A stretch of DNA of 64,000 nt, from the NCBI GenBank assembly GCA_963718875.1, contig OY970378.1:754433-818432 (forward strand), in the 5' to 3' direction. Shown here one piece after another: positions 3,003-55,726 of the stretch (the first letter of the stretch is position 1; every line of letters starts with the position of its first letter). The stretch comes from Candidatus Parcubacteria bacterium. GTDB taxonomy: Bacteria; Patescibacteriota; Saccharimonadia; UBA4664; JBIOIQ01. The notes beneath the pieces were generated by a model that saw nothing but the letters and a program-made list of their open reading frames with translations, was not told where the DNA came from and made no database searches. Both the position numbers and the translations under genes were made by a program.

Positions 3003-3560
3003 TTAAAATTTTACGTCCACAGGCTTGTCAACTTCGGCTTGGTTTTCAACACTAAAGAACTCGCGGCTAGTAAATCCCAGCGTGCTTGCAAATATATTGG
3101 TGGGGAATACCTGAAGCTTAATATTAAAGTCGCGCACATTGCCATTGTAAAAACGCCTAGCGGCTTGAATTTTGTCTTCGGTATCAACCAGCTCACCTTG
3201 AAGTTGTAAAAAGTTTTCGTTAGCCTTCAGATCTGGATAAGCCTCAGCAACAGCAAATAGACTTTTTAAAGCACCTGCGAGCATGTTTTCATTCTCGGCT
3301 TTTTCGGCCACATTAGTGGCGCTCATAGCGGCAGTCCGCGCCTGGGTAACTTTTTCGAAAACACCTGATTCGTGGGTGGCATATCCCTTGACACTGTTTA
3401 CCAGATTTGGAATGAGATCGTAGCGGCGCTTGAGCTGCACGGTGATATCACTCCAGGCCTCGTCTGTACGGTTACGCAAACGGATTAGTCCATTATACGT
3501 AGCCCACAGAAATACAATTAATAAGCCGATAATAATAAGCAAAATCCATAGACCCAGCAT
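3003..3560 (-). CDS. LemA family protein
   Basis: N-terminal TM plus the conserved LemA core (NGLIRLRNRTDEAWSDI..VQLKRRYDLIPNLV). The LemA-HtpX-like pairing is common. Confidence 0.75.
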   Translation of the reverse strand: MLGLWILLIIIGLLIVFLWATYNGLIRLRNRTDEAWSDITVQLKRRYDLIPNLVNSVKGYATHESGVFEKVTQARTAAMSATNVAEKAENENMLAGALKSLFAVAEAYPDLKANENFLQLQGELVDTEDKIQAARRFYNGNVRDFNIKLQVFPTNIFASTLGFTSREFFSVENQAEVDKPVDVKF

Positions 3561-3877
3561 TGATACAACCTCTTTCGTATTATAGCTCTAGTATAACACG
3601 TACATGCGCTTGCTTGCCACGAGTGAGTATTAGAGAAGCTTTTAAAAACGTGCTTGTACTCTGGTTGATAAAATTAGGCATTTAAGCTACGATTTGGCAG
3701 TTGTAAATGATGGTCGCAGGGGCTATGGTCTGTGTTGATTGGTGCGGCATGAGACGTTCAAATTTAGATGCAGTTTAAGGAGATGTGAGCACAGCAAGCG
3801 AGCCGTACATAAAAGGTACGGCGAGTGCGGAGCGCAGACGTCGACACAGAAATGCGGTAAATTTGAACGTAGAATTA

Positions 3878-3963
3878 GGGCGAGTGGTGAAATGGTATAC
3901 ACGCTAGCATGAGGGGCTAGTGACCGCAAGGTCGTGGAGGTTCAAGTCCTCTCTCGCCCACCA
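3878..3963 (+). tRNA. tRNA-Leu (anticodon GAG), long variable arm
   Basis: Manual fold: acceptor GGGCGAG/CTCGCCC, anticodon stem CTAGC/GCTAG with loop ATGAGGG, long variable arm, T-arm GGAGG-TTCAAGT-CCTCT, CCA encoded. Confidence 0.7.
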
Positions 3964-4048
3964 AAGCAATCTTCGCTTTTTTATCAAACACTTTATTAAA
4001 AATGCTCCCGCACCGGCTAACCGGTACGGGAGAAAATGGTGCAAGAAT

Positions 4049-4816
4049 CTACATGCCGACCGCGTGAAAACCGCCATCGGCGTGGATGATCTCACCAGTT
4101 GTGGCGGGGAGCCAGTCTGACAACAGAGCCACACAGGTTCTAGCGACCGACTTGGGGTCTTTGGCGTCCCAGCCTAGAGGAGCTCGAGCATCCCAGGGTT
4201 CGGCGATAGCGTCGAAGCCGGCAATGGATCTGGCGGCTACTGTCTTGAGCGGTCCTGCCGAAACCAGGTTGACCCTGACGCTGTACTGACCCAAGTCACG
4301 AGCGAGGTAGCGGGCAGTAGATTCCAGCGCTGCCTTTGCCACACCCATCCAGTTGTAGGACGGCCATGCTTGGCTGGCGTCAAAGTCAAGCCCAACAATG
4401 GAGCCGCCACCTTTCATCAACAGCAAAAGAGTTTCGGCTAGCGCTTTGAGAGAGAAAGCTGACGTCTGGACGGCCACGGACACGTCAGGCCATGGCGCAG
4501 CTAGAAAATCGCCTCCGATACAGGATGCCGGGCCATAGGCGATGGCGTGGAGCACTCCGTCTAAGTGGTCCCAGCGATTACCAAGGTCAGTAGCCAATGA
4601 GGCTAAGTGTTCCAAATCATTAACATCCACCTCCAGCACATCGGGGACGGGAAACAATCTACTGGCTGTTCGTCTGGTCACGCTCATGGCTCGACCGAAG
4701 CTGGTCAAGACTATTTCGGCGCCTTCACCCTGAGCCACCTTGGCCACTTCGTACGCAATCGAGTCGGAGTTAAGGACTCCCGTTATCAACAACCGCTTGC
4801 CATCCAGCAGCCCCAT
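4049..4816 (-). CDS. fabI: enoyl-ACP reductase, NADH-dependent (FabI/InhA type); high-GC island gene
   Basis: SDR-fold enoyl reductase signature (GKRLLITGV...SIAY, Y..K catalytic region, DGGFHA C-terminal motif as in InhA). Visibly GC-rich codons. Confidence 0.8.
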   Translation of the reverse strand: MGLLDGKRLLITGVLNSDSIAYEVAKVAQGEGAEIVLTSFGRAMSVTRRTASRLFPVPDVLEVDVNDLEHLASLATDLGNRWDHLDGVLHAIAYGPASCIGGDFLAAPWPDVSVAVQTSAFSLKALAETLLLLMKGGGSIVGLDFDASQAWPSYNWMGVAKAALESTARYLARDLGQYSVRVNLVSAGPLKTVAARSIAGFDAIAEPWDARAPLGWDAKDPKSVARTCVALLSDWLPATTGEIIHADGGFHAVGM

Positions 4817-6151: not shown

Positions 6152-7360
6152 TTGCTTGCCGTGAGCCAGGCTTCGGATATTGCAAAAAGACAACCTTTTA
6201 GTAGAGACGATAAGCCACTTTCGGGCAATCAGCTTTTAGATACATTAGCCGAGCTAAGCTCCTCTAAGGCAACCCTAGAAGAAGACCGCATTCGCAACCA
6301 GGCTTTACTTAATAGTTTGGGCGAGGGATTAATTGTTATCGACCAGGACGGCATTATTACAACCATCAATCCCAAAGCGGCTGAGATCTTAGGAGTCACG
6401 GAGACTGAATTGTTAGGAGAGTGGTTCCCACGCGCCGTTCAAGCTGTAGACTCTGGAGGTAGGGTGATCCAAACTTTGAAACGTCCTATCATCCAGGCTT
6501 TGTCGCAAGGTCATGCTGTATCTGGAAACTCAAATTATGTCTGCAATGATGGTAGCATAATTCCGGTAGCTTCAAATGTTGCTCCTGTGGTGGTAAACGG
6601 GCGACCCGTGGGTGCTATTGAAGTGTTCCGCGATATTACCGAAGAACAAGCTTTAGAGCGGGCTAAAGACGAGTTTGTTTCGCTGGCGTCACATCAGTTA
6701 CGCACGCCTGCAACTGCAGTTAAGGCAATTTTGGCCATGCTCGTAAGTGGTGATTTTGGCGAAATGACCCCAAGGCAAAAGCATTTTATAACTAAGGCCA
6801 TCTCTACTAATGATCGTCAGCTGGAGATCATTGAAGACATGCTTCATGCTGCTAGAATTGACGCAGGCAAGATGCAACTTTCTTTGGAGACAGTGGAGCT
6901 GGTGGGGATGTGCAATGAAGTAGTGCGAGAGCAGCTGCGAGACATCGAGAGTCGCAAACAAACCATTAATATTCGTCGGCCATCACAGGAGTTGTTTGTT
7001 AAAGCCGATGCTACAAAACTACGTATGGTTTTGGAGAACCTCATTTCCAATGCCCATAAATATACCCCCAACGGCGGTAGAATAGATATCAGGACAGTAG
7101 TGACAACCCCTACAGTCCGGGTTGAGGTAGCCGACACTGGGGTGGGTATTAAAAAATCTGATTTAAATAAACTGTTTGATAAGTTTTCTCGTATCGATAA
7201 CCAGCTATCAGCTAAAGTAGGCGGCAGCGGGTTAGGGTTATACTTAGTCAAACACATAATTAATTTACACGAAGGCAATATACACGTGGAGTCTAAACTT
7301 GGTGAAGGGAGTACGTTTACGGTGGAGCTACCAATGCTTGCTAGGTCTAAGGCTTTGTGA
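6152..7360 (+). CDS. sensor histidine kinase, cytoplasmic, with PAS domain
   Basis: PAS-like region (GLIVIDQDGII), HisKA H-box SHQLRTP, HATPase_c N/G boxes (NAHKYTP, GGSGLGL). Confidence 0.8.
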   Translation: MLAVSQASDIAKRQPFSRDDKPLSGNQLLDTLAELSSSKATLEEDRIRNQALLNSLGEGLIVIDQDGIITTINPKAAEILGVTETELLGEWFPRAVQAVDSGGRVIQTLKRPIIQALSQGHAVSGNSNYVCNDGSIIPVASNVAPVVVNGRPVGAIEVFRDITEEQALERAKDEFVSLASHQLRTPATAVKAILAMLVSGDFGEMTPRQKHFITKAISTNDRQLEIIEDMLHAARIDAGKMQLSLETVELVGMCNEVVREQLRDIESRKQTINIRRPSQELFVKADATKLRMVLENLISNAHKYTPNGGRIDIRTVVTTPTVRVEVADTGVGIKKSDLNKLFDKFSRIDNQLSAKVGGSGLGLYLVKHIINLHEGNIHVESKLGEGSTFTVELPMLARSKAL

Positions 7361-18180: not shown

Positions 18181-19119
18181 CTACCCCTGGTCAAGGCCTC
18201 CGTCAAAGCGGCTTCTATCGACTGACGGATCGTTGGCGGATACCACCGCTTGAACGCCCGTATCCGGTGTGCCGCCGGGAGGCGGTGGAGCATCGAGGGC
18301 GAACTCTGCCGGCGTCGGTATAGGAGGCCTTGGGTGTCGACCGATGCCTTCAATTGCCTTTTCGACCGTCCTATTGGCAGCCTCCGTGAACCTTGCAAGC
18401 TGACGCTCAAGCGCACCGTACCGCGCCTCACTCAGATCGAGTTGCTCACGCAGATCGGCGTTGATTCGCTCCTGCGCCGACAGGTCTTCCAGTGCTTGGC
18501 CATGAGTCTGCACCAGCTCCCGGACCCTTGCCAAGAGAATTTGCAACTGACCTTCTCGAGCCGCCAGGTCAGACGCGATCGACTCGACCATCTCTAGGAG
18601 ATCGGCGACGGTGGGCTGGGGGTTGGGTACATCTACGTCTTCCCGTCCCTGTTCTACGATCGCTGGCGAGTGGGCACGAACTTCCTGGAGGACTGCTCTC
18701 CTGATGTCCGCAAGCTCTACCCCTAGCTTGACCAGAACTTGGCATCCTACTGCATCTTCGTCTCTGAGTAGGCCGAGCAGGATGTGCGCTGGGGTTATGA
18801 CCTCACTCTCGCTCGGCCCTTGAGGCGGCACTAGAAGAGCTTCACGTACCGACAGCTCGAGAACCTTTTTGGCTCGAGGAGTAAAAGGAATGCGGCCGCT
18901 AGGCGATGATTCTCCCAGACCAATGTCCTCCTCTACTTGCTTTCGGACGCATCCGAGAGTAACCCCGAGTCCGTCGAGGACACTGGCCGCGTCTCCTCCT
19001 TCTCGGATCAAGCCGAGCAGGATGTGCTCGGAACCGATGTAGCTGTGGTGGAGCTGGCGCGCCTCCTCCTGAGCCAAGACGACGACACGTCGGGCACGTT
19101 CGGTGAATCGTTCGTACAT
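18181..19119 (-). CDS. Clp N-terminal (Clp_N repeat) domain protein with coiled-coil and Pro-rich C-terminus; high-GC island gene
   Basis: Two Clp_N repeats (FTERARRVVVLAQEEARQLHHSYIGSEHILLGLIRE... and ...ITPAHILLGLLRDED), no AAA+ domain; strongly GC-rich codons. Confidence 0.65.
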   Translation of the reverse strand: MYERFTERARRVVVLAQEEARQLHHSYIGSEHILLGLIREGGDAASVLDGLGVTLGCVRKQVEEDIGLGESSPSGRIPFTPRAKKVLELSVREALLVPPQGPSESEVITPAHILLGLLRDEDAVGCQVLVKLGVELADIRRAVLQEVRAHSPAIVEQGREDVDVPNPQPTVADLLEMVESIASDLAAREGQLQILLARVRELVQTHGQALEDLSAQERINADLREQLDLSEARYGALERQLARFTEAANRTVEKAIEGIGRHPRPPIPTPAEFALDAPPPPGGTPDTGVQAVVSANDPSVDRSRFDGGLDQG

Positions 19120-19498
19120 TTTCGGTCCCCCTTAGGGATCGGTGCTACTCGGTTGGGATGGTACTCGCAAAAGCTGTATGAGGCTGGTTTGACCTCACAA
19201 AAAACGCCAATATATTTTACTGCTTTTGGGCGTTTGTGTCAAAAATAATTGTTTGTGAATCTTGAAACCCCTTAAACTTTTTGTCATCCTCCGACTTGAT
19301 CGGAGGATCTCGGCTAGATTCCCTACCCGGAGCGCCAAGCCAGGTAATAGTTGGGCTTGGCTTTCCGATAGGGAATGACACAAAATGGTGTGTTGATAAT
19401 TGCATTTGCCCTGTCTGCCGAGCCACTTTGAGAGTGACCCGGCAGACAGCATTGGACGATGGACTTCACTACTTGGTTTGCTTGGACTGATGAGGGGG

Positions 19499-20494
19499 CT
19501 AGCGAGGAGTAACCGCCCGGCGGATGTTACCCACCAAGTCTCCGGCCACCATCTCCGCCGCTAGGCCAACGGCGTTGAAGATAGCACGGCTCGATGCAGA
19601 GCCGTGGCTGATGATGCAGACCCCGTCGACGCCCAACAGAGCGGCGCCGCCGTAGGTGTCGGGGTCAAGCTCAGCTTGCAGAGGCAGGAGAGCCGGCAAC
19701 AGGACCTTGGTGGCCTCGCGAGCCTCCTCAGTTGATGTCATCGCTCGGAGAAGGGCGTCAACAACCACCCGAACGGACCCTTCGAGGGTCTTGAGGACGA
19801 CGTTGCCGGTGAATCCGTCGGTAACCACCACATCGGCCGCGTCAGTCAGGACGTCACGGCCTTCCACGTTGCCTATGAAGCGGCCTACCGATAGGGCGCC
19901 TGCCTCAGCCAGCAGGGCATGCGCCCCTTTGACCAGTTCGTTGCCCTTGCTTTTCTCCTCTCCGATGGAAAGGAGCCCAACGGTCGGCTCGTCCTTGCCC
20001 AGACGCAAAACGGCGTAGGCCGCCCCCATCTGAGCAAACTGCAACAGCCAGGGCGGCGTGCACTCGGCGTTGGCTCCACTGTCGAGGAGGACAGTGGGAC
20101 TGGAGCCGGGTACGGGGAGCATTGTAGCGATAGCCGGACGGGCAACGCCGGCGATGCGACCCATGCGAAGCAAGGCACTAGCCATAGCCGCACCGGTATT
20201 TCCGGCACTCACCATGGCACTGGCTCGCCCGTCGCGTACCGCTTCGGCTGCTCGCACCATACTGGCGTCCTTCTTGCGTCGGACTCCCTGCATGGCATCG
20301 TCACCCATTTCGATGACCTCGCTCGCGGGCCAACATTCGAGATCACCGGTGTGGAGTTCTTGCAATACTTCGGCTTGACCAACCAGAACCACGGGGACGC
20401 CGAACCGCTCTGCGGCCTCGCGGGCACCTGCCACAATCTCTCCGGGGCCTTTGTCACCCCCCATCACGTCTACTGCAATCGGTAGCTCTGGCAT
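19499..20494 (-). CDS. plsX: phosphate acyltransferase PlsX; high-GC island gene
   Basis: PlsX signatures (IAVDVMGGD..., GNTGA, DGFTGNVVLK, ISHGSAS); GC-rich codon usage. Confidence 0.85.
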   Translation of the reverse strand: MPELPIAVDVMGGDKGPGEIVAGAREAAERFGVPVVLVGQAEVLQELHTGDLECWPASEVIEMGDDAMQGVRRKKDASMVRAAEAVRDGRASAMVSAGNTGAAMASALLRMGRIAGVARPAIATMLPVPGSSPTVLLDSGANAECTPPWLLQFAQMGAAYAVLRLGKDEPTVGLLSIGEEKSKGNELVKGAHALLAEAGALSVGRFIGNVEGRDVLTDAADVVVTDGFTGNVVLKTLEGSVRVVVDALLRAMTSTEEAREATKVLLPALLPLQAELDPDTYGGAALLGVDGVCIISHGSASSRAIFNAVGLAAEMVAGDLVGNIRRAVTPR

Positions 20495-20610
20495 TTTCTG
20501 CTCCTTCCGTAGAGCATCGTCGGGACAACAAAAAGGCGCTCACTTTTGATGTGCGCTCACCTTGCGCACAATAATAGCATATGTAAAGGGAAAAACGAAC
20601 TTGATTAAGC

Positions 20611-20650
20611 GATCCTGAAACGACCGTCAGTTGACGGTTCAGGATGACAA
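20611..20650. repeat. 40-bp palindromic repeat element, copy A (GATCCTGAAACGACCGTCAGTTGACGGTTCAGGATGACAA)
   Basis: 39/40 identical to the copy at 39647-39686. Internal palindrome ACCGTCA-GT-TGACGGT. Ends in GGATGACAA, the reverse complement of TTGTCATCC at 19281-19289. Confidence 0.6.
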
Positions 20651-20725
20651 GCAGAATGAAGGGTTGGGAATCTGATGCGCTCAAGGTATAATCATAAACA
20701 GTTTTCTCTTCGTATTTCTAAGTGC

Positions 20726-20799
20726 GGCACCGTGGCGGAGTGGCTACGCAGAGGTCTGCAAAACCTTTTACACCGGTTCAATTCCGGTCGGTGCCTCCA
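20726..20799 (+). tRNA. tRNA-Cys (anticodon GCA)
   Basis: Acceptor GGCACCG/CGGTGCC, anticodon stem GAGGT/ACCTT with loop CTGCAAA, T-arm ACCGG-TTCAATT-CCGGT, CCA encoded. Confidence 0.7.
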
Positions 20800-23733: not shown

Positions 23734-23802
23734 TGCTCGGGAGTTTGAAAAATATCTCAAGTCTGGAGTAGGTAGGCAATACTTAAGAAGCTTTGAGACT
23801 TA

Positions 23803-23888
23803 GGGCGAGTGGTGAAATGGTATACACGCTAGATTCAGGTTCTAGTGAGCGCAAGCTCGTGGAGGTTCGACTCCTCTCTCGCCCACCA
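23803..23888 (+). tRNA. tRNA-Leu (anticodon CAG), long variable arm
   Basis: Same acceptor/D-arm as the tRNA at 3878; anticodon stem CTAGA/TCTAG with loop TTCAGGT; T-arm GGAGG-TTCGACT-CCTCT; CCA encoded. Confidence 0.7.
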
Positions 23889-23910
23889 ATTACCACTCAA
23901 ATGTGCTGAA

Positions 23911-24942: not shown

Positions 24943-24962
24943 TTTAAGGGATTTTGAAGCAA

Positions 24963-24990
24963 TTGTCAGCTGACTGTTTTAGGATGACAA
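24963..24990. repeat. degenerate third copy of the 40-bp palindromic element
   Basis: TTGTCAGCTGACTGTTTTAGGATGACAA vs consensus CGTCAGTTGACGGTTCAGGATGACAA. It keeps the GTCAG..CTGAC palindrome and the GGATGACAA terminus. Confidence 0.3.
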
Positions 24991-25873: not shown

Positions 25874-25907
25874 CGGATCCGGAGTGGCTAAAGCCTTTTG
25901 GTCCTGG
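25874..25907. repeat. 34-bp junction motif shared (inverted, 30/34 identical) with 39596-39629
   Basis: CGGATCCGGAGTGGCTAAAGCCTTTTGGTCCTGG vs the reverse complement of the 39.6 kb copy CGGATCCGGAGCGGCTAAAGCCTTCCGGTCCGGG. Confidence 0.5.
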
Positions 25908-25970
25908 ACGACAAAGTGATGAAGGGCGGTCGCTTGCGAGCGACCGCCCTTCCGGAGCAGATCCGACAGG

Positions 25971-26312
25971 TCAGCCCACCGGAACAAAGACACAGCTGAA
26001 ACCATTCAGGAGCGCGCTGCTGACGATCACCGTCCCGTTCTGGATCCTGACAGCCGGGTCGTCAAACATTTCGGTACCTTCAGAGGTTTCGACGCTGAGG
26101 CGGACGCAGTTTGGCGTCCTGATGACAGTCACTTCTACAACCGTCGCGAACGAGATTCTTGATCCGGCGGCAGCACCCGCAACAGTGGCGACGATCGTAA
26201 CCTCTTCTTGAAGGAGAGCCGACTTGATCGCCCTGATGACTTCTTTGTGCTCTCGGTCCGAGCCTTGTAGCCGTAATTCCTCCAAGTAGGGCTCAGTGGC
26301 TTGGGTGGGCAT
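25971..26312 (-). CDS. hypothetical protein, high-GC island gene
   Basis: 113-aa GC-rich ORF. It is followed on its 3' side by a perfect 13-bp-stem hairpin (GAAGGGCGGTCGC-TTGC-GAGCGACCGCCCTTC, 25921-25953). Confidence 0.45.
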   Translation of the reverse strand: MPTQATEPYLEELRLQGSDREHKEVIRAIKSALLQEEVTIVATVAGAAAGSRISFATVVEVTVIRTPNCVRLSVETSEGTEMFDDPAVRIQNGTVIVSSALLNGFSCVFVPVG

Positions 26313-29011: not shown

Positions 29012-29418
29012 TGTAGCACGCTAAGGCGGGAGATTGAAGTCAGACTTTAGTATTGGTGGGGTGTTGTGCTAGATTTGAAGTCTGACTTCCTGATAACCTC
29101 GAGGGTTGACAGTTGATGGATCCCCTATCCGGAGCATCCAATTTGTCAAAACTGGTGACTACAATGGCCTTCCGATATGGGATAACGGGATTTTTCTGCG
29201 ATGGATTGGATCGACTCAGTGTTAAACGTCAGCAGCTAAAAGTTAAGCGTTTCTCGTGTGTCAAATGTCAGACATTAGCGGTCAAAAGTTGCTTTAGCGT
29301 TTGTGTATCAGACGGCTGAGACTAAAAACGCTCTTTCCACTCACCCGCATCCGCTTCTTGCGTTTACGGTCGCGCGTTTCAGCACGTCTTAACGCGCGTA
29401 AAACTTGTTGACGACTGC

Positions 29419-31172: not shown

Positions 31173-31685
31173 TCAGGTCATGCCTCCCCAAGGAGATGCG
31201 AGAAGCCATGATGGAACGAAATGATCCGGGAGTGGTTCATCTTGCTCCTGATACGGCAGGAAGCCGATGCGATGGCAGTACCACTCCAACACCGCCACAA
31301 GCAGGCCGAGAGATACCAAGATCTGTGCGACAAGCAGCCACGCTACGTACGGTCGACCGTGGCCTGTTGTATCGATGAAGACTTGACCTGATCGGCCCAG
31401 CCACACTCGAGTCGTCTTCTGGTCGCCAAACTCAGTGGAAAGGTTGGCTGGGCGGGTTACCGGCAACCCATCACGCCCGATGTAGGTGACACCGAACAGG
31501 GTTGTCGAGGTGGTTTTTGACCCAACTTGGGAACTGATATTGGTACTCACAACGCCAACAATTGGACTTCCCCACTCTTGCTGGTTGCGCGCATCGAGGC
31601 GGGCAGCGAGCACCAGAAGCTGGATACTGGCAACCACCACTAGGACCATGACCACAACCTTACTCGGTACTAACTTCTTCGACAT
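31173..31685 (-). CDS. membrane protein (DUF3592-like: TM - beta-rich domain - TM), high-GC island gene
   Basis: 170-aa GC-rich ORF with N- and C-terminal hydrophobic helices. Confidence 0.45.
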   Translation of the reverse strand: MSKKLVPSKVVVMVLVVVASIQLLVLAARLDARNQQEWGSPIVGVVSTNISSQVGSKTTSTTLFGVTYIGRDGLPVTRPANLSTEFGDQKTTRVWLGRSGQVFIDTTGHGRPYVAWLLVAQILVSLGLLVAVLEWYCHRIGFLPYQEQDEPLPDHFVPSWLLASPWGGMT

Positions 31686-32514: not shown

Positions 32515-33560
32515 CTGCAATCCTGAGTTTCCTGAATTCACCCCTCAATCAGGACAGTCTCTCGTAAAACTCCTTTCTCTTTAGCCATTTCAATAGCGGA
32601 CATATATCCCAGGATCTTCCTGGGTTTGTTGTTTATGATCGTAATGATACGCTGCAATTCTTTGTTCGTCACGGTGGCTAGATCCATGCCTTTGGGCAAG
32701 TAGTGCCGAATCATTCGGTTGGCGTTTTCCACCCCTCCTTTTTGCCAGCTAGAATAGGGGTCACAGAAAAAAACGAGCATATCGAGCAATCTGTGCCAAC
32801 GGTTCTCGATACCGTTGTCGAGAGTCAGACTGCTGATGAGAGCAAGACCAGTTTGGAAGAGCTGATGGCTCCATTAAAGCTCACCGGACACAAGTCTGGG
32901 ATGGGTCTAGCAGCAATCAGTCTGGTGACTCGTTCCTGAATCACTACGATTGCTGCTTTTGATCCAGTCCGCTTGCCGCTAACGATGGTATCCCCCTCAT
33001 AGTGGCCCACTTCGCTCCGGACGGTAGCTTCATGGGGGCGCTCTGTAATACTCACCCGATCTGGAATCATCACCCGATCGGTCTTTGGTTTGCGCTTCTT
33101 TGGTCTGTACCTACGGGAGGGCAGGTAGTCACAGTACTTCTGCCCTCTGGCGCTGTCGAGCCATTCGTAGATGGCTGTCTTAGAGGCATAGTAACCGTGC
33201 TGATCTTTTTTTAGTCGTCCCGCTATCTCATCGGGATTCCAGCCATCCATGAGGCGCACAATGATGTACCAGCGCAAATCATCATTCTCCTGGATCTTCT
33301 TGCCCTGGTACTTGGCATACTTGCGTTTGACGTAGGCTTTTTGTTTGGCGATGCGGGCATTGTAGCCTTCCGGGGTCTTATTACGCTTCACCTCATCACT
33401 GATGGTATTGGGGCTCCGGCCCAAAGCCCGACCAATGGCCCTAAGAGTGTGACCTTTATTTAAAAGAATTTCTATTTCCGAACGCTCTGCCGATGTTAGT
33501 TTAGTAGCTTTTACCATGATGACACTCTACGGGTTGACTGTCCTGATTCAAAACGGAATG
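32515..33560 (-). mobile_element. IS30-family insertion sequence (transposase frameshifted)
   Basis: Terminal inverted repeats: CTCAATCAGGACAGTCTC at the left end vs the reverse complement of the right end TGAATCAGGACAGTCAAC. Element about 1.05 kb, within the IS30 size range. Confidence 0.65.
32538..33517 (-). pseudogene. IS30-family DDE transposase split into two ORFs (32825..33517 N-terminal HTH/DDE part; 32538..32789 C-terminal part)
   Basis: N-terminal ORF MVKATKLTSAERSEIEILLNKGHTLRAIGRALGRSPNTISDEVKRN (IS30 HTH). C-terminal ORF ...YSSWQKGGVENANRMIRHYLPKG (IS30 DDE C-terminal signature). The two ORFs are out of frame. Confidence 0.7.
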
Positions 33561-33635
33561 GAGGTATATAGCTCAGCGCCCCTCGACATTTTGCTACTTT
33601 CATCTATCCGTCCTGCCAACCCAAGGAGCATTTCC

Positions 33636-34184
33636 GTGACTGTGACCCAGACCCGCCCTGCCCCCCTCACCGAGGACGAGGAGCGGCTCATTGCAAAGCT
33701 CATCACCAACCCGCGAGTGCCCAGCCGAGACGTGGCTCGCCTCCAATTGGACGACCTCGAGGTTGTCCGCCGTACCCTGTTCTTCGTCACCCGCGACCTG
33801 GCTACCCAGCCCCCCACGCTGCATCCCGTCATCGTGGTACAGCCGAAGCAGGTGCAGACGCTCCCCGCCAACCTGGAAGAGCTTGAGAGGCTGGTCCACG
33901 ACCTCTACTCGAAGCTGGAAGAGTTGAAGGCCATCGTGCCGCAGATTCTCGCCGGCCGGATCGACACCTGCCTCTCGAACGCCGTTGAGGCCTACGGAGA
34001 CACGCAGCGTTTGTTGAGGTGGATCGACAGGGCCAAGGACCTGATCAAGCTGATCGAGTCCAACCCGATGTTCCGATCGACCACGCCTCCGGCTGTCGAT
34101 CTCGACGCACTCAAGGCTCGCGACGCCAAGCTGAGTACCACCCCCAAGAAGCCCCGTTTCAAGAAGGGCAAGAAGCAGAAGTAG
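33636..34184 (+). CDS. hypothetical protein, high-GC island gene abutting the IS30
   Basis: AAGGAG RBS + GTG start at 33636; GC-rich; C-terminal Lys-rich tail. Many spurious antisense ORFs overlap it. Confidence 0.4.
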   Translation: MTVTQTRPAPLTEDEERLIAKLITNPRVPSRDVARLQLDDLEVVRRTLFFVTRDLATQPPTLHPVIVVQPKQVQTLPANLEELERLVHDLYSKLEELKAIVPQILAGRIDTCLSNAVEAYGDTQRLLRWIDRAKDLIKLIESNPMFRSTTPPAVDLDALKARDAKLSTTPKKPRFKKGKKQK

Positions 34185-34188
34185 CAAC

Positions 34189-34713
34189 ATGTTCGAGCGT
34201 CCCGGCCGGTGCCCCACGTGGGTGCCGGTCGGGCCTCCGACCCAACGTCTGAAGTCACTTGAGGCTTTAGGTCGAGGTTCAATTGACAGCTGCAAATATC
34301 AGCGATATGGTTTGAGACGTCCACCGCACATCCCACAAGGAGGTAGTACATACGATAACCAGCTGCTAATAAGTCCGGAGGATGTAATCGGCTGGAGCAA
34401 CGAGTTTGAATATCGCTCGCTTCAGCTGTTCGTCTCCGTCCAAGGTGTCACGCATTTCATTGGTAGTGTCGGCCCATGCGCCCAGCGTTGCGGCATTTGC
34501 CGAGACACCCACTACTACGCCAAGAATTGCAACGGGTTGCCAGTTAAACCCGATAACGGCTACGGCTTCAATTCGGGAAGAAGTGCCGTCGTGGCTCTGC
34601 TCGAACAAAGCCGGTTCTACGCCCACAAAGGCAGATGGCTAAACCAAAGCCAATGGGATCGGCTGCAGCGCAAGCTACCTCACCAGCAGCCTAAGCGTTG
34701 GTACTCGCTGTAA
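34189..34713 (+). CDS. hypothetical Cys-containing protein (coding status uncertain)
   Basis: 174-aa track ORF of mixed composition; no convincing start/RBS identified. Confidence 0.25.
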   Translation: MFERPGRCPTWVPVGPPTQRLKSLEALGRGSIDSCKYQRYGLRRPPHIPQGGSTYDNQLLISPEDVIGWSNEFEYRSLQLFVSVQGVTHFIGSVGPCAQRCGICRDTHYYAKNCNGLPVKPDNGYGFNSGRSAVVALLEQSRFYAHKGRWLNQSQWDRLQRKLPHQQPKRWYSL

Positions 34714-38112: not shown

Positions 38113-38625
38113 TCAGCCGAGCAGCTTGTGGATCACCCGGGCCGCTTCTTGACGCTTGACCACTAGAACGATCGCGAAGACTGCAACGACAAGGACGAGG
38201 ATAAAGATGGTCACTCTAGCTGGAGTATGCGAGATCAACCCCCAGGCGATAGTGCTGTAAATGATGGGCCACCAGACGGCACGCATCAGCTCAAAAGATC
38301 CAGAGAGGGCGTCGGCGACCCAGACACCTAGAATCAGCACCACGCCGAACCAAATCCAGAGGTCACCGGCGACCATCATGCCGATGAGCGGGCTGACAAG
38401 GAGTACGCGGTCAGACTGACCGTCAAGGTGGTAGCCAAACTCAGTTGCAACTCCCCACCTTTTGGCCAGGAAGCCATCGAGAAGATCACTTCCGAATCCG
38501 CCCACAACGAGCCAGATGGCGGCGGAGGTCCAGTGGTTTTCGATAATGAGAGTGTAGACATAAACCGCCATCAACAGCCGAAGCGCGCTAATGACATTGA
38601 CCGTGATGAGCTTGAAAGTTCTCAT
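38113..38625 (-). CDS. CDP-alcohol phosphatidyltransferase family protein; high-GC island gene
   Basis: D-G-x2-A-R...G-x3-D-x3-D motif (DGFLAKRWGVATEFGYHLDGQSDRV) in a multi-TM protein; GC-rich. Confidence 0.7.
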   Translation of the reverse strand: MRTFKLITVNVISALRLLMAVYVYTLIIENHWTSAAIWLVVGGFGSDLLDGFLAKRWGVATEFGYHLDGQSDRVLLVSPLIGMMVAGDLWIWFGVVLILGVWVADALSGSFELMRAVWWPIIYSTIAWGLISHTPARVTIFILVLVVAVFAIVLVVKRQEAARVIHKLLG

Positions 38626-38777
38626 GTCTTTTCTCCTGCTCGAGCTTTGGGATGTGCGAAGGGTGTTTATAATAACATACTTTCACGTAAAATACAATGT
38701 TTTACTGTCTGAAGAGGCAAAGAGCCCGGGTCGACGTCATTGTCGACTTGCGGGCTCTGTTGTTTTTCGCCTGTTCC

Positions 38778-39500
38778 CTACTTGGATCGGACCTTGCTCT
38801 TACCAGTCCGGTAGTTGTACTCGATATGGTCTCCAGTCTTGGTCATGGGGGCGATGGTGTCGAGGACTACCATCGAGACGAAGCCGGCGAAGCCGATGGC
38901 GAAGGTCAACGTGACCAACGTACTTCGTTGCGTGACCAGAAGCGGCACAAGTGCCGAGAGCATCCAGTAGGCCACAATGGCGAAGATGAAGGTGTGCCAG
39001 AGCTTGGAGGGGCTGAGCTCCTGCGCCATGGTGTAGTAGCCGCACTTGACCGGGGACAGCTCCATGAGCAGCGATAGGCCGAAGCCGAACGCTAGGAGGG
39101 TAAGGTGCCACCAGCGCTGGGTGTACCACCCGTTGGAGGGTGTCCAGGCCCGCAGAGCGTACCCCATCCCAATGAGGATCATTGGGATGAAGAGGGTGTC
39201 GTTGAAGCGGAAGGTCCAGTAGCGCGGAATCGTGGGGTCTCCCTCGACGAGGCGCCTGATCACGAGGATGGCCACGAAGTCGGCCAAGATCATGATGGCC
39301 GCGGCGGCGAATGGTCCCCACGGACGGGCGACCCAGCGGTAGATGTCGAGTGCTGGCAGAATGCCGGCGGAACGTGACTTGCCAGTGGCGGGCTTGGAGG
39401 CGGCGAGGAGCATCAGCTCCAGCGCTACAAACACGAAGAGCAGATAGATAGCAGTCCGACGGGGCATGACTCCTCCAGAGGGAGTAGTAGGGATATTCAA
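38778..39500 (-). CDS. polytopic membrane protein, hypothetical; high-GC island gene
   Basis: 240-aa hydrophobic ORF. The alternative frame 38800..39564 is Arg-rich and typical of an off-frame in GC-rich DNA. Confidence 0.5.
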   Translation of the reverse strand: MNIPTTPSGGVMPRRTAIYLLFVFVALELMLLAASKPATGKSRSAGILPALDIYRWVARPWGPFAAAAIMILADFVAILVIRRLVEGDPTIPRYWTFRFNDTLFIPMILIGMGYALRAWTPSNGWYTQRWWHLTLLAFGFGLSLLMELSPVKCGYYTMAQELSPSKLWHTFIFAIVAYWMLSALVPLLVTQRSTLVTLTFAIGFAGFVSMVVLDTIAPMTKTGDHIEYNYRTGKSKVRSK

Positions 39501-39586
39501 CTGTCAACAAAGTGCGAGAAACTATATTATAATAGCATACTTTCACGATAAATGCAAGGTCCAACGCTTGAACTCAATAACCTAAC

Positions 39587-39686
39587 TTGTCATCCCGGAC
39601 CGGAAGGCTTTAGCCGCTCCGGATCCGGGATCCACCAACTGTCGTGGATCCTGAAACGACCGTCAGTTGACGGTTCAGTATGACAA
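39587..39686. repeat. composite repeat element B: TTGTCATCC - 34-bp motif (inverted copy of 25874-25907) - 40-bp palindromic element - GTATGACAA
   Basis: Starts with CTTGTCATCC and ends with TATGACAA (inverted termini). Contains GATCCTGAAACGACCGTCAGTTGACGGTTCAGTATGACAA, 39/40 identical to copy A at 20611. Confidence 0.55.
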
Positions 39687-39694
39687 TTGACAAA

Positions 39695-55584: not shown

Positions 55585-55726
55585 TCTGGCACCAACCTGT
55601 CATCTCGACCCCCACACGTCATTCCCCGGCTTGACCGGGGAATCTATCTGAATAGATGTTTCGCCCAGTTTACCCTGAGAGAAGTCGAAGGGCTCAACAT
55701 GACAGGATAAAGTTAAGAAACAGTTT

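Follow-up and report, generated by a model that had tools for sequence, protein, structure and literature searches.

In a 64-kb window of a Saccharibacteria-like genome (contig OY970378.1; by the window we mean the whole stretch of DNA analyzed), the recurrent 9-mer TTGTCATCC is the unpaired tag (T)TGTC followed by ATCC, the four bases with which the stem of a repetitive extragenic palindrome (REP) begins. The elements to which it belongs are most probably TGTC-tagged REPs of the CGTC/TGTC super-family, with structural variants, that are scattered in intergenic spacers and are not the ends of a gene cassette. An earlier note on this DNA had read two copies of the 9-mer, lying in inverted orientation on either side of the GC-rich gene plsX, as the termini of a mobilizable cassette. 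That reading is not supported, and nothing shows the two copies to be the ends of one mobile plsX cassette.

The earlier proposal was right in that the repeat is genuine: it is a short palindrome present in several copies, and elements of this sort are commonly considered mobile. Four exact copies of the 9-mer are present in the window, at 19281-19289 (+), 20642-20650 (-), 24982-24990 (-) and 39587-39595 (+), versus 0.35 expected, and 0 of 100 shuffled sequences reached four. One-mismatch copies are located at 39678-39686 (-), in the form TTGTCATAC, and at a site ending at 25914 (-). The positions reported earlier for the 9-mer, for a 40-bp element and for the neighboring copies were all accurate. 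The 9-mer is above background in the window; its association with GC-rich genes is not significant when all units are included. A hairpin abuts every real copy of the 9-mer in the window. The hairpin that had been noted after position 19281 exists, but its stem takes in the last four bases of the 9-mer and does not form a separate element following it. Read from the tag, the copies share a plan of TTGTC, the stem opening ATCC, a variable interior, GGAT and C. A REP unit consists of the tag, an imperfect hairpin (its stem starting with an A-T and then a T-A pair, and often interrupted by an internal loop or a bulge) and a tail of a few bases. Three interior types occur among the window units: a short perfect hairpin (unit A), a 40-bp type (units B, F and C) and a GGC-TTTA-GCC type (units E and D).

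Besides two dimers (19281-19381 and 39587-39686) and a single intact solitary unit (20611-20650), the inventory of the window comprises two units that have decayed, a fragment and a doubtful candidate. Unit A (19281-19311, +) has the tag TTGTC at 19281-19285, a stem-loop at 19286-19308 and the tail CTC. According to sequence reading and hairpin scan, its hairpin ATCCTCCGA-CTTGA-TCGGAGGAT has 9 bp in a row and a 5-nt loop, and it shares the GACTTGATC-loop type with units of dimers in the metagenome contigs L087, L185, L128 and L153. Its inverted partner A' (19315-19381, -; tag GTGTC, tail CTA), recognized by the same two approaches, starts ~30 nt to the right of A and forms a long bulged hairpin, ATTCCCTA...TAGGGAAT, at 19318-19376, with GACAC next on the + strand; its end, GGGAATGACA at 19371-19380, is ~100 bp off. 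When A and A' (19281-19381) are folded together as single-stranded DNA, three hairpins closed by TGTCAT/ATGACA result (z -6.9 and -6.4). The other dimer is built from unit E (39587-39634, +; tag TTGTC, tail CCA), with homologous units in L086, L088 and L185 and a hairpin of the form ATCCCGGACCGGA-GGC-TTTA-GCC-TCCGG-TCCGGGAT, and from its inverted partner F (39647-39686, -; tag TTGTC, first stem bases ATAC, tail CCA). E and F together make a 100-bp heterodimer with outward-facing tags and a spacer hairpin, GGATCCAC-N8-GTGGATCC, and the single-strand fold of this dimer (39583-39690) again consists of three hairpins closed by TGTCAT/ATGACA (z -5.6 and -5.8).

Solitary unit B (20611-20650, -; tag TTGTC, tail CGC), supported by sequence reading, repeat search and fold, is the 40-bp element of the earlier note, which is indeed ended by the reverse-complement 9-mer and recurs at 39647-39686. 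On the - strand, its hairpin reads ATCCTGAACCGTCA-AC-TGACGG(TCGT)TTCAGGAT, with a 4-nt bulge, and the 40-bp unit folds on its own as a single strand (z -3.5 and -4.2). B and F are identical at 39 of 40 positions, the identity stops exactly at the unit boundaries, and the flanks are unrelated on both sides. It follows that the 40-bp unit itself gets copied, and that the copied unit is a single tagged hairpin. Units pair into tags-outward heterodimers of ~70-250 bp, in which the short spacer may itself be a hairpin. With age, copies decay, largely through G-to-A changes, as units C and D illustrate. Unit C (24946-24990, -; tag TTGTC) is a B/F-type copy with mostly G-to-A changes that no longer folds (z -0.75) and sits between convergent APH and Exo_endo_phos genes. 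Unit D (25874-25914, -), detected by inverted-repeat search and blastn, is an E-type copy with 88% identity to E and the tag TTGTCGTCC (TTGTC, then GTCC); it has lost the fold (z +0.43) and lies just downstream of the GC-rich open reading frame (ORF) 25971-26312. Fragment G (29108-29135, -) corresponds to positions 30-57 of the E-F dimer, i.e., the 3' half of E and the spacer (89% identity over 28 nt, E-value 0.001 in blastn-short). Candidate H (55650-55704, -), which reads TGTCAT-GTTGAGC...GCGAAACAT-C and lies between rpe and rpiB (Pfam assignments), has a 5-bp base stem in the hairpin scan and a fold z of only -0.33, and is uncertain. Partner A', diverged unit D, fragment G and weak candidate H had been overlooked in the first reading.

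CGTC-tagged REPs, divided into families CGTC-1 to CGTC-4, were described by Di Nocera, De Gregorio and Rocco (2013, BMC Genomics 14:522; PMC3733652). According to this work, the tag is CGTC, often TGTC (variants TGTC and CCTC), and it is followed by a stem of 8-9 bp that starts with A-T pairs, a loop of 4-5 nt and a 3-nt unpaired tail resembling CCA. The prevailing arrangement is the head-to-head dimer, often a heterodimer, whose spacer measures 20-100 bp and sometimes contains stem-loops. The repeats are mostly intergenic, have no associated transposase, and were found in microorganisms of five phyla, mostly Alphaproteobacteria. Listed members include dRS3 of Neisseria (ATTCCC-N8-GGGAAT; CGTC-1) and RPE-4 and RPE-6 of Rickettsia, and bulged variants may, in the authors' own estimate, have escaped their search (PMC3733652).

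The window units resemble these REPs in several respects. TGTC is found directly 5' of the stem in A, B, C, E and F (as TTGTC), in A' (as GTGTC) and in D (as TTGTC, then GTCC). The stem is bounded by ATCC...GGAT in A, B and E and by ATTCC...GGAAT in A', and F keeps the first two pairs with the third mismatched. Both dimers, AA' and EF, have outward tags and partners of different unit types, and the spacer of EF has a stem-loop of its own. No transposase was found among the window ORFs or beside the metagenome and viral copies described below. Unit A, moreover, agrees with families 3 and 4 in its stem (9 bp) and loop (5 nt). We assign the repeats to the super-family because tag, stem start, tags-outward dimers, intergenic siting and lack of a transposase all match the published description (PMC3733652). 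There are also differences: most units here and in metagenomes are longer-stemmed, with a 3x3 internal loop (GAA/TGA) or bulges of 1-4 nt and variable apices; most of these have a T before the tag; and the host is a Saccharibacteria-like genome of the Candidate Phyla Radiation (CPR). The 2013 catalogue predates CPR genomics. In the literature searched, we found no report of REPs of the CGTC/TGTC type in Saccharibacteria or other CPR, and the tagged REPs appear to be new for this phylum.

In order to see the family outside the window, metagenome and viral collections were scanned with the pattern TTGTCATCCYGRACCG-N(12-30)-GGATC. The tagged hairpin was found in at least 120 metagenome contigs and in three stretches from two viral contigs. 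Matched loci contain 206 tagged hairpins in 747 kb, versus 9 in 910 kb of control loci, a ~28-fold difference. Among the matches listed, the contigs range from 29 to 71% GC. Two features conserved in their 95 distinct units were not dictated by the pattern: TGA precedes RGGATC in 51, and the base at position 10 forms a C-G pair with its partner in 43, T-A in 30 and T-G in 3. In an alignment of 30 sequences, 88% of the cells pair, versus 35-51% in slid controls, and 24 cells are changed on both sides, versus 10.8 in shuffles (0 of 500 reached this value). The A-U and U-A opening pairs are present in 30 of 30 sequences, with both 5' letters and the 3' GGAT imposed by the search pattern. The stem is conserved by covariation across lineages, its 5' half being fixed by the pattern.

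The metagenomic copies are arranged like those of the window. In the matched loci, 30 tags-outward pairs span 50-250 bp; beyond this range there are scattered singletons, and no class of the size of a gene or an insertion sequence (IS). The dimers are heterodimers of a GAGC...GCGA or GACTTGATC-loop partner (A-like) and a GAACCG partner (B/E-like), and their spacer is often itself a hairpin. No target-site duplications were seen at the 30 listed dimers. Tails are mostly CTG or CTC. Among the matches listed, copies are mostly intergenic, their orientation relative to the neighboring genes is unbiased (17/16/12/10), and no transposase or RAYT (REP-associated tyrosine transposase) is found beside metagenome or viral copies. 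An all-against-all BLAST of 744 ORFs from the matched loci gave no recurrent neighbor protein family, with no cluster larger than five, and those that recur are housekeeping proteins (D-Tyr-tRNA deacylase, ABC ATPase, sigma-54 activator and others).

These data bear directly on the proposal of a composite plsX cassette with A (19281) and B (20650) as its inverted termini and with its enzyme encoded elsewhere. The tags of A and B do face outward, TTGTCATCC is exact in both, an A-type unit is naturally paired with one of the B type in L087 and L185, and DNA can be inserted between dimer partners (PMC3733652). But A is already paired with the complete partner A' at ~100 bp, the usual dimer size. 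Because A has this inverted partner of its own, the units that actually flank plsX, A' (19315-19381) and B (20611-20650), are both on the - strand and thus in direct orientation, not inverted. The flanks AAACTTT and GCAGAAT of A and B show no target-site duplication, the tags-outward distances elsewhere have no gene-sized class, and no mobility gene, recombinase or transposase was found among the window ORFs run against Pfam. The base composition of plsX, ~10 GC points under donor values, implies long residence, and nucleotide homology to the donor ends at the ORF boundaries. We consider the cassette very unlikely. A DDE-type MITE (a miniature transposable element with inverted repeats) or composite transposon around plsX was likewise rejected, given the direct A' and B, the lack of target-site duplications at A/B or at the 30 dimers, and the lack of IS-sized pairs.

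The description of the gene itself was correct. plsX (phosphate acyltransferase; 19499-20494, -) matches Pfam FA_synthesis over its full length (E-value 1e-94) and has a GC content of 0.63 versus 0.47 for the window. Its foreign origin is also borne out, the PlsX protein being 85-91% identical at the amino acid level to proteins of Acidimicrobiia/Acidimicrobiales metagenome-assembled genomes. Nucleotide similarity to the donor lineage is ~79% and confined to 19499-20487, i.e., to the ORF, and none of the neighbor genes of Acidimicrobiia plsX loci is present in the window. Since donor homology covers the ORF only and donor neighbors are absent from the window, plsX was acquired horizontally as a single gene of Acidimicrobiia-like (actinobacterial) origin. 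Donor-lineage plsX genes have GC contents of 0.71-0.74 (donor loci, 69-74%), and the lower value here suggests that plsX has been resident for some time and is partly ameliorated. Its place between one REP dimer and one solitary unit, two independent REP insertions, is probably coincidental.

The earlier note had offered a shared operator of a donor regulon, brought in with the foreign genes, as its alternative. In keeping with this, the units have a fairly high GC content, and GC-rich genes adjoin several of them. In 80 plsX loci, mostly from Acidimicrobiia, however, TTGTCATCC is at background (6 matches), the hairpin core is absent, and these are the loci with the control density of 9 tagged hairpins in 910 kb. 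Donor homology stops at the plsX ORF, and elsewhere the units lie next to unrelated housekeeping genes in contigs spanning the full 29-71% GC range. An operator function of this kind is therefore extremely improbable.

Several observations weigh against the assignment to the CGTC/TGTC super-family as ordinary scattered repeats. Stem and loop have the published dimensions in unit A only (9 bp, 5 nt); the hairpins of B/F, E/D and A' contain at least 14 pairs, with bulges and with loops of 2-12 nt. A CCA tail is seen in E and F alone, versus CTC in A, CGC in B and CTA in A'. The scan pattern fixed the 5' half of the unit and the 3' GGAT, so that the covariation rests on few free positions. The evidence covers 64 kb of a genome of 1,189,924 bp (~5%), and copy number and recombinase search are window-wide only. 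Finally, if only the five clear REP-bearing spacers are considered, four of them lie beside GC-rich genes (P ~0.03-0.05 on this strict set).

The last point leads to another explanation, in which tagged REPs serve as landing pads, i.e., as sites for a recombinase or for homologous recombination that aid the capture of adjacent exogenous DNA, including plsX. Such a role has been proposed for dRS3 and the Neisseria intergenic mosaic elements (NIME): dRS3 units flank variable segments and were proposed to promote exchange of adjacent genes, and a filamentous phage integrates into dRS3 by means of a phage transposase (PMC1797815). dRS3 is listed as a CGTC-1 REP (PMC3733652). Within the window, GC-rich genes adjoin AA', B, D and EF alike, and the syntenic relative L081 has neither GC-rich genes nor the motif. 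However, with all units counted, four of seven REP spacers versus 17 of 53 spacers flank GC-rich genes, which is not significant (P 0.14, or 0.19 by length), and we regard the association as suggestive at best. Candidate H lies among core pentose-phosphate genes, metagenomic copies lie amid ordinary housekeeping genes, no recombinase is found in the window, and donor-lineage plsX loci lack such units that could supply homology. Landing pads are thus an unlikely explanation. Somewhat less likely again is its broader form, in which TGTC REPs would be portable recombination sites that retain actinobacterial DNA (plsX, the fabI-like reductase and the CDP-alcohol phosphatidyltransferase) in a Saccharibacteria-like genome, the tag shared across phyla and phage would reflect a common recombinase, and the repeats would be the CPR counterpart of dRS3/NIME.

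The tagged REPs can also be set beside other known repeats. With GTAG REPs, bacterial interspersed mosaic elements (BIMEs) and REP doublets forming hairpins (REPINs) they share an imperfect palindrome with an unpaired conserved tag, the formation of inverted doublets (REPINs, Y/Z heterodimer BIMEs), and an intergenic, multi-copy distribution without target-site duplication. Unlike in the GTAG REP/RAYT system, the tag is TGTC and not GTAG or GTGG, and no RAYT (Y1_Tnp) is found in the window or by the ~120 metagenomic copies listed. In REPIN-RAYT systems, a single-copy RAYT gene is flanked by REPs. REPIN families are lineage-specific, whereas tag and stem base here are common to contigs of widely different GC content. 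MITEs are similar in that the dimers are 70-250 bp long, non-coding and bounded by terminal inverted TGTCAT...ATGACA, and in that, in acidobacteria-like contigs, the unit is contained in an extended repeat bounded by a long inverted repeat. Unlike DDE-derived MITEs, however, the repeats have no target-site duplications and no parent IS with the same ends was found, and single 40-bp units are copied (B, F). Unit A' resembles dRS3, as it starts with ATTCCC and ends with GGGAAT beside a GTC-containing tag. In contrast to the dRS3/NIME system, where 20-bp units usually alternate with RS elements in long arrays, units here are 30-65 nt long and single or dimeric, without arrays, and no Nf-type phage or Piv/IS110-like gene was seen in the window.

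A Pfam search of 73 of the 78 listed window ORFs of at least 80 amino acids revealed no Y1_Tnp, DDE transposase, recombinase or integrase. The only related ORF, 32825-33517 (230 amino acids), has HTH_38/HTH_23 N-terminal domains only and no catalytic core. Such N-terminal domains are typical of IS30-family transposases. This ORF adjoins the GC-rich ORFs 33600-34295 and 34366-34626, both without a Pfam match. Rfam identified only tRNAs in the window and nothing at the motif in 17 metagenome and viral loci, even at E-values up to 10. Literature searches by DNA words and by the peptides that such repeats would encode yielded nothing relevant. Such hairpins may give spurious peptides like CHPERSEGS or VILSEAKDL.

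Other identities were considered and rejected. Integrons carry attC sites in the same orientation after each cassette, together with an intI integrase. An attC cassette does not fit, as CCCGAAC and GTGAGGG deviate from the boxes RYYYAAC/GTTRRRY and are not mutually complementary, no integrase domain is found in the window, and the units occur in either orientation. Elements of the IS200/IS605 type encode a TnpA Y1 transposase, and the hairpins at their left and right ends lie on one strand. Ends of such elements, or palindrome-associated transposable elements (PATEs), are excluded by the inverted dimer partners and the lack of Y1_Tnp. For a hammerhead-like core, a tRNA T-arm and dif/pdif sites, the defining boxes or topology do not fit on sequence reading. 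The tRNA-Cys gene as an integration site is also ruled out, since the foreign block lies 5' of the tRNA, with no tRNA 3'-end repeat and no integrase.

An action at the RNA level is compatible with REP membership. The units could be transcribed 3'-end hairpins that stabilize mRNA or that terminate or insulate transcription. The stem covaries while the sequence varies; the GAA/TGA internal loop of the tag-first strand could, judging from the sequence, form tandem G-A pairs, and its complement cannot; AA' after plsX and D after ORF 25971-26312 are both on the strand of the gene; and many REPs have been argued to be transcribed, downstream of ORFs (PMC3733652). On the other hand, the orientation of metagenomic copies is unbiased with respect to the genes on either side, the hairpins are not followed by a U-tract, a terminator scan finds no terminator at the units, B is upstream of both its neighbors, and C and D are decayed with loss of the fold. 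We consider a dedicated cis-acting RNA role improbable, if less so than the recombination-based explanations. As TGTC-tagged REPs, the units would spread as non-autonomous single-strand hairpin elements, with the mobilizing enzyme possibly supplied in trans. Most copies would have no effect or a slight benefit, for instance as hairpins at transcript 3' ends, and would decay if not maintained.

In acidobacterial-looking contigs (~58% GC), the tagged hairpin forms part of a larger repeat, ~150-190 nt in length (L084, L092, L095, L097, L102 at ~6400-6650, L119, L140, L152, L155-L158, L179, L184 and L195). This composite has an outer inverted repeat of up to ~32 bp (...AGGCCGCTGAAAAAGTCG / CGACTTTTTCAGCGGCCT...) that covaries between copies and, inside it, an upstream GC hairpin, GGGGCGCAGC-TTTA-GCTGCGCC, which also covaries, a T-rich linker and the TTGTC unit; Rfam has no match to it. 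In the window, a strong GC hairpin, AAGGGCGGTCGC-TCGCAA-GCGACCGCCCTT at 25915-25970 (-), lies directly upstream of unit D, just past the stop of ORF 25971-26312, and is preceded by CGGATCTGC, which resembles a REP unit 3' end. The arrangement of this hairpin and unit D recalls the hairpin-plus-REP composite. In L195, an Acido-Lenti-1 RNA (RF01687, 39.6 bits) at 3472-3526 is bracketed by two tagged REP units, at 3382 and 3627, that are identical to each other. In L091, L101, L134, L153, L154, L163, L169 and L175, the 5' half of the unit (tag and half-stem, TTGTCATCCYGRAC plus 7-20 nt) is present in two or three tandem copies before one complete hairpin, a pattern suggestive of slippage or of partial insertions repeated at the tag. 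The viral stretches L203-L205 (IMG/VR 3300025154_000214 and 3300025010_000320) have two tagged units per contig, in the same orientation within each; in L205, for which alone the shared orientation is shown directly, they are ~1 kb apart. Predicted phage genomes, therefore, carry the family as well.

The genomic background is that of a Saccharibacteria-like backbone of ~46% GC, dotted with lone GC-rich genes (GC 0.55-0.63). The closest relatives of the native genes, among them a FAD-linked oxidase, UvrABC, pentose-phosphate and glycolysis enzymes and a DUF5671 protein, are Saccharibacteria/Saccharimonadia proteins with only 55-67% identity. The best related locus, L081, has the same backbone (UvrA, UvrC, holin, SBP_bac_5, FAD oxidase, PadR-pentapeptide) and is syntenic but too distant for an empty-site comparison. 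A further locus, L082, has only the FAD oxidase in common and lacks the motif. GC-rich genes are located at 4049-4816, 18181-19119, 19499-20494, 25971-26312, 31173-31685, 33600-34295, 34366-34626, 38113-38625 and 38800-39564. Three of them are for lipid synthesis (plsX, an enoyl-ACP-reductase-like adh_short_C2 protein and a CDP-alcohol phosphatidyltransferase). The Clp_N-domain gene at 18181-19119 (-; GC 0.60) is foreign too, from a source other than that of plsX; its best matches are Actinomycetota and Chloroflexota proteins with ~60% identity over half its length.

A 34-nt AT-rich segment, 85% identical between copies, precedes the GC-rich genes 38113-38625 and 38800-39564 (at 38667-38700 and 39527-39560, -). 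It reads ...GTGAAAGTATG(C/T)TATTATAA, and plsX is preceded by TATGCTATTAT at ~20560-20590 (-). This looks like a shared, native-style extended -10 promoter ahead of foreign genes. Promoter-like sites are also found near the Clp_N-domain gene (TTGACA-17-TAAAAT, 19242-19214, -) and before tRNA-Cys (TTGGGA-17-TATAAT, 20664-20692). The tRNA-Cys gene (GCA; 20726-20799, +) starts 76 bp past 20650, as had been stated. The tRNA-Leu genes at 3871-3964 and 23796-23889 (anticodons GAG and CAG) share 89% identity across 94 nt, and most of the differences fall in the anticodon and variable arms.

Removing the false lead of a mobile plsX cassette and tracing the 9-mer to the tag of an ordinary REP family matters little in itself. 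The CGTC/TGTC REP family, however, is apparently far wider (contigs of 29-71% GC, viral contigs) and structurally more varied than in the 2013 catalogue. With 1.19 Mb and few candidate genes, this genome would be a convenient place to seek the enzyme that spreads the super-family. The foreign GC-rich genes in a Saccharibacteria-like genome, three of them lipid-synthetic, bear on how epibionts get their membrane lipids.

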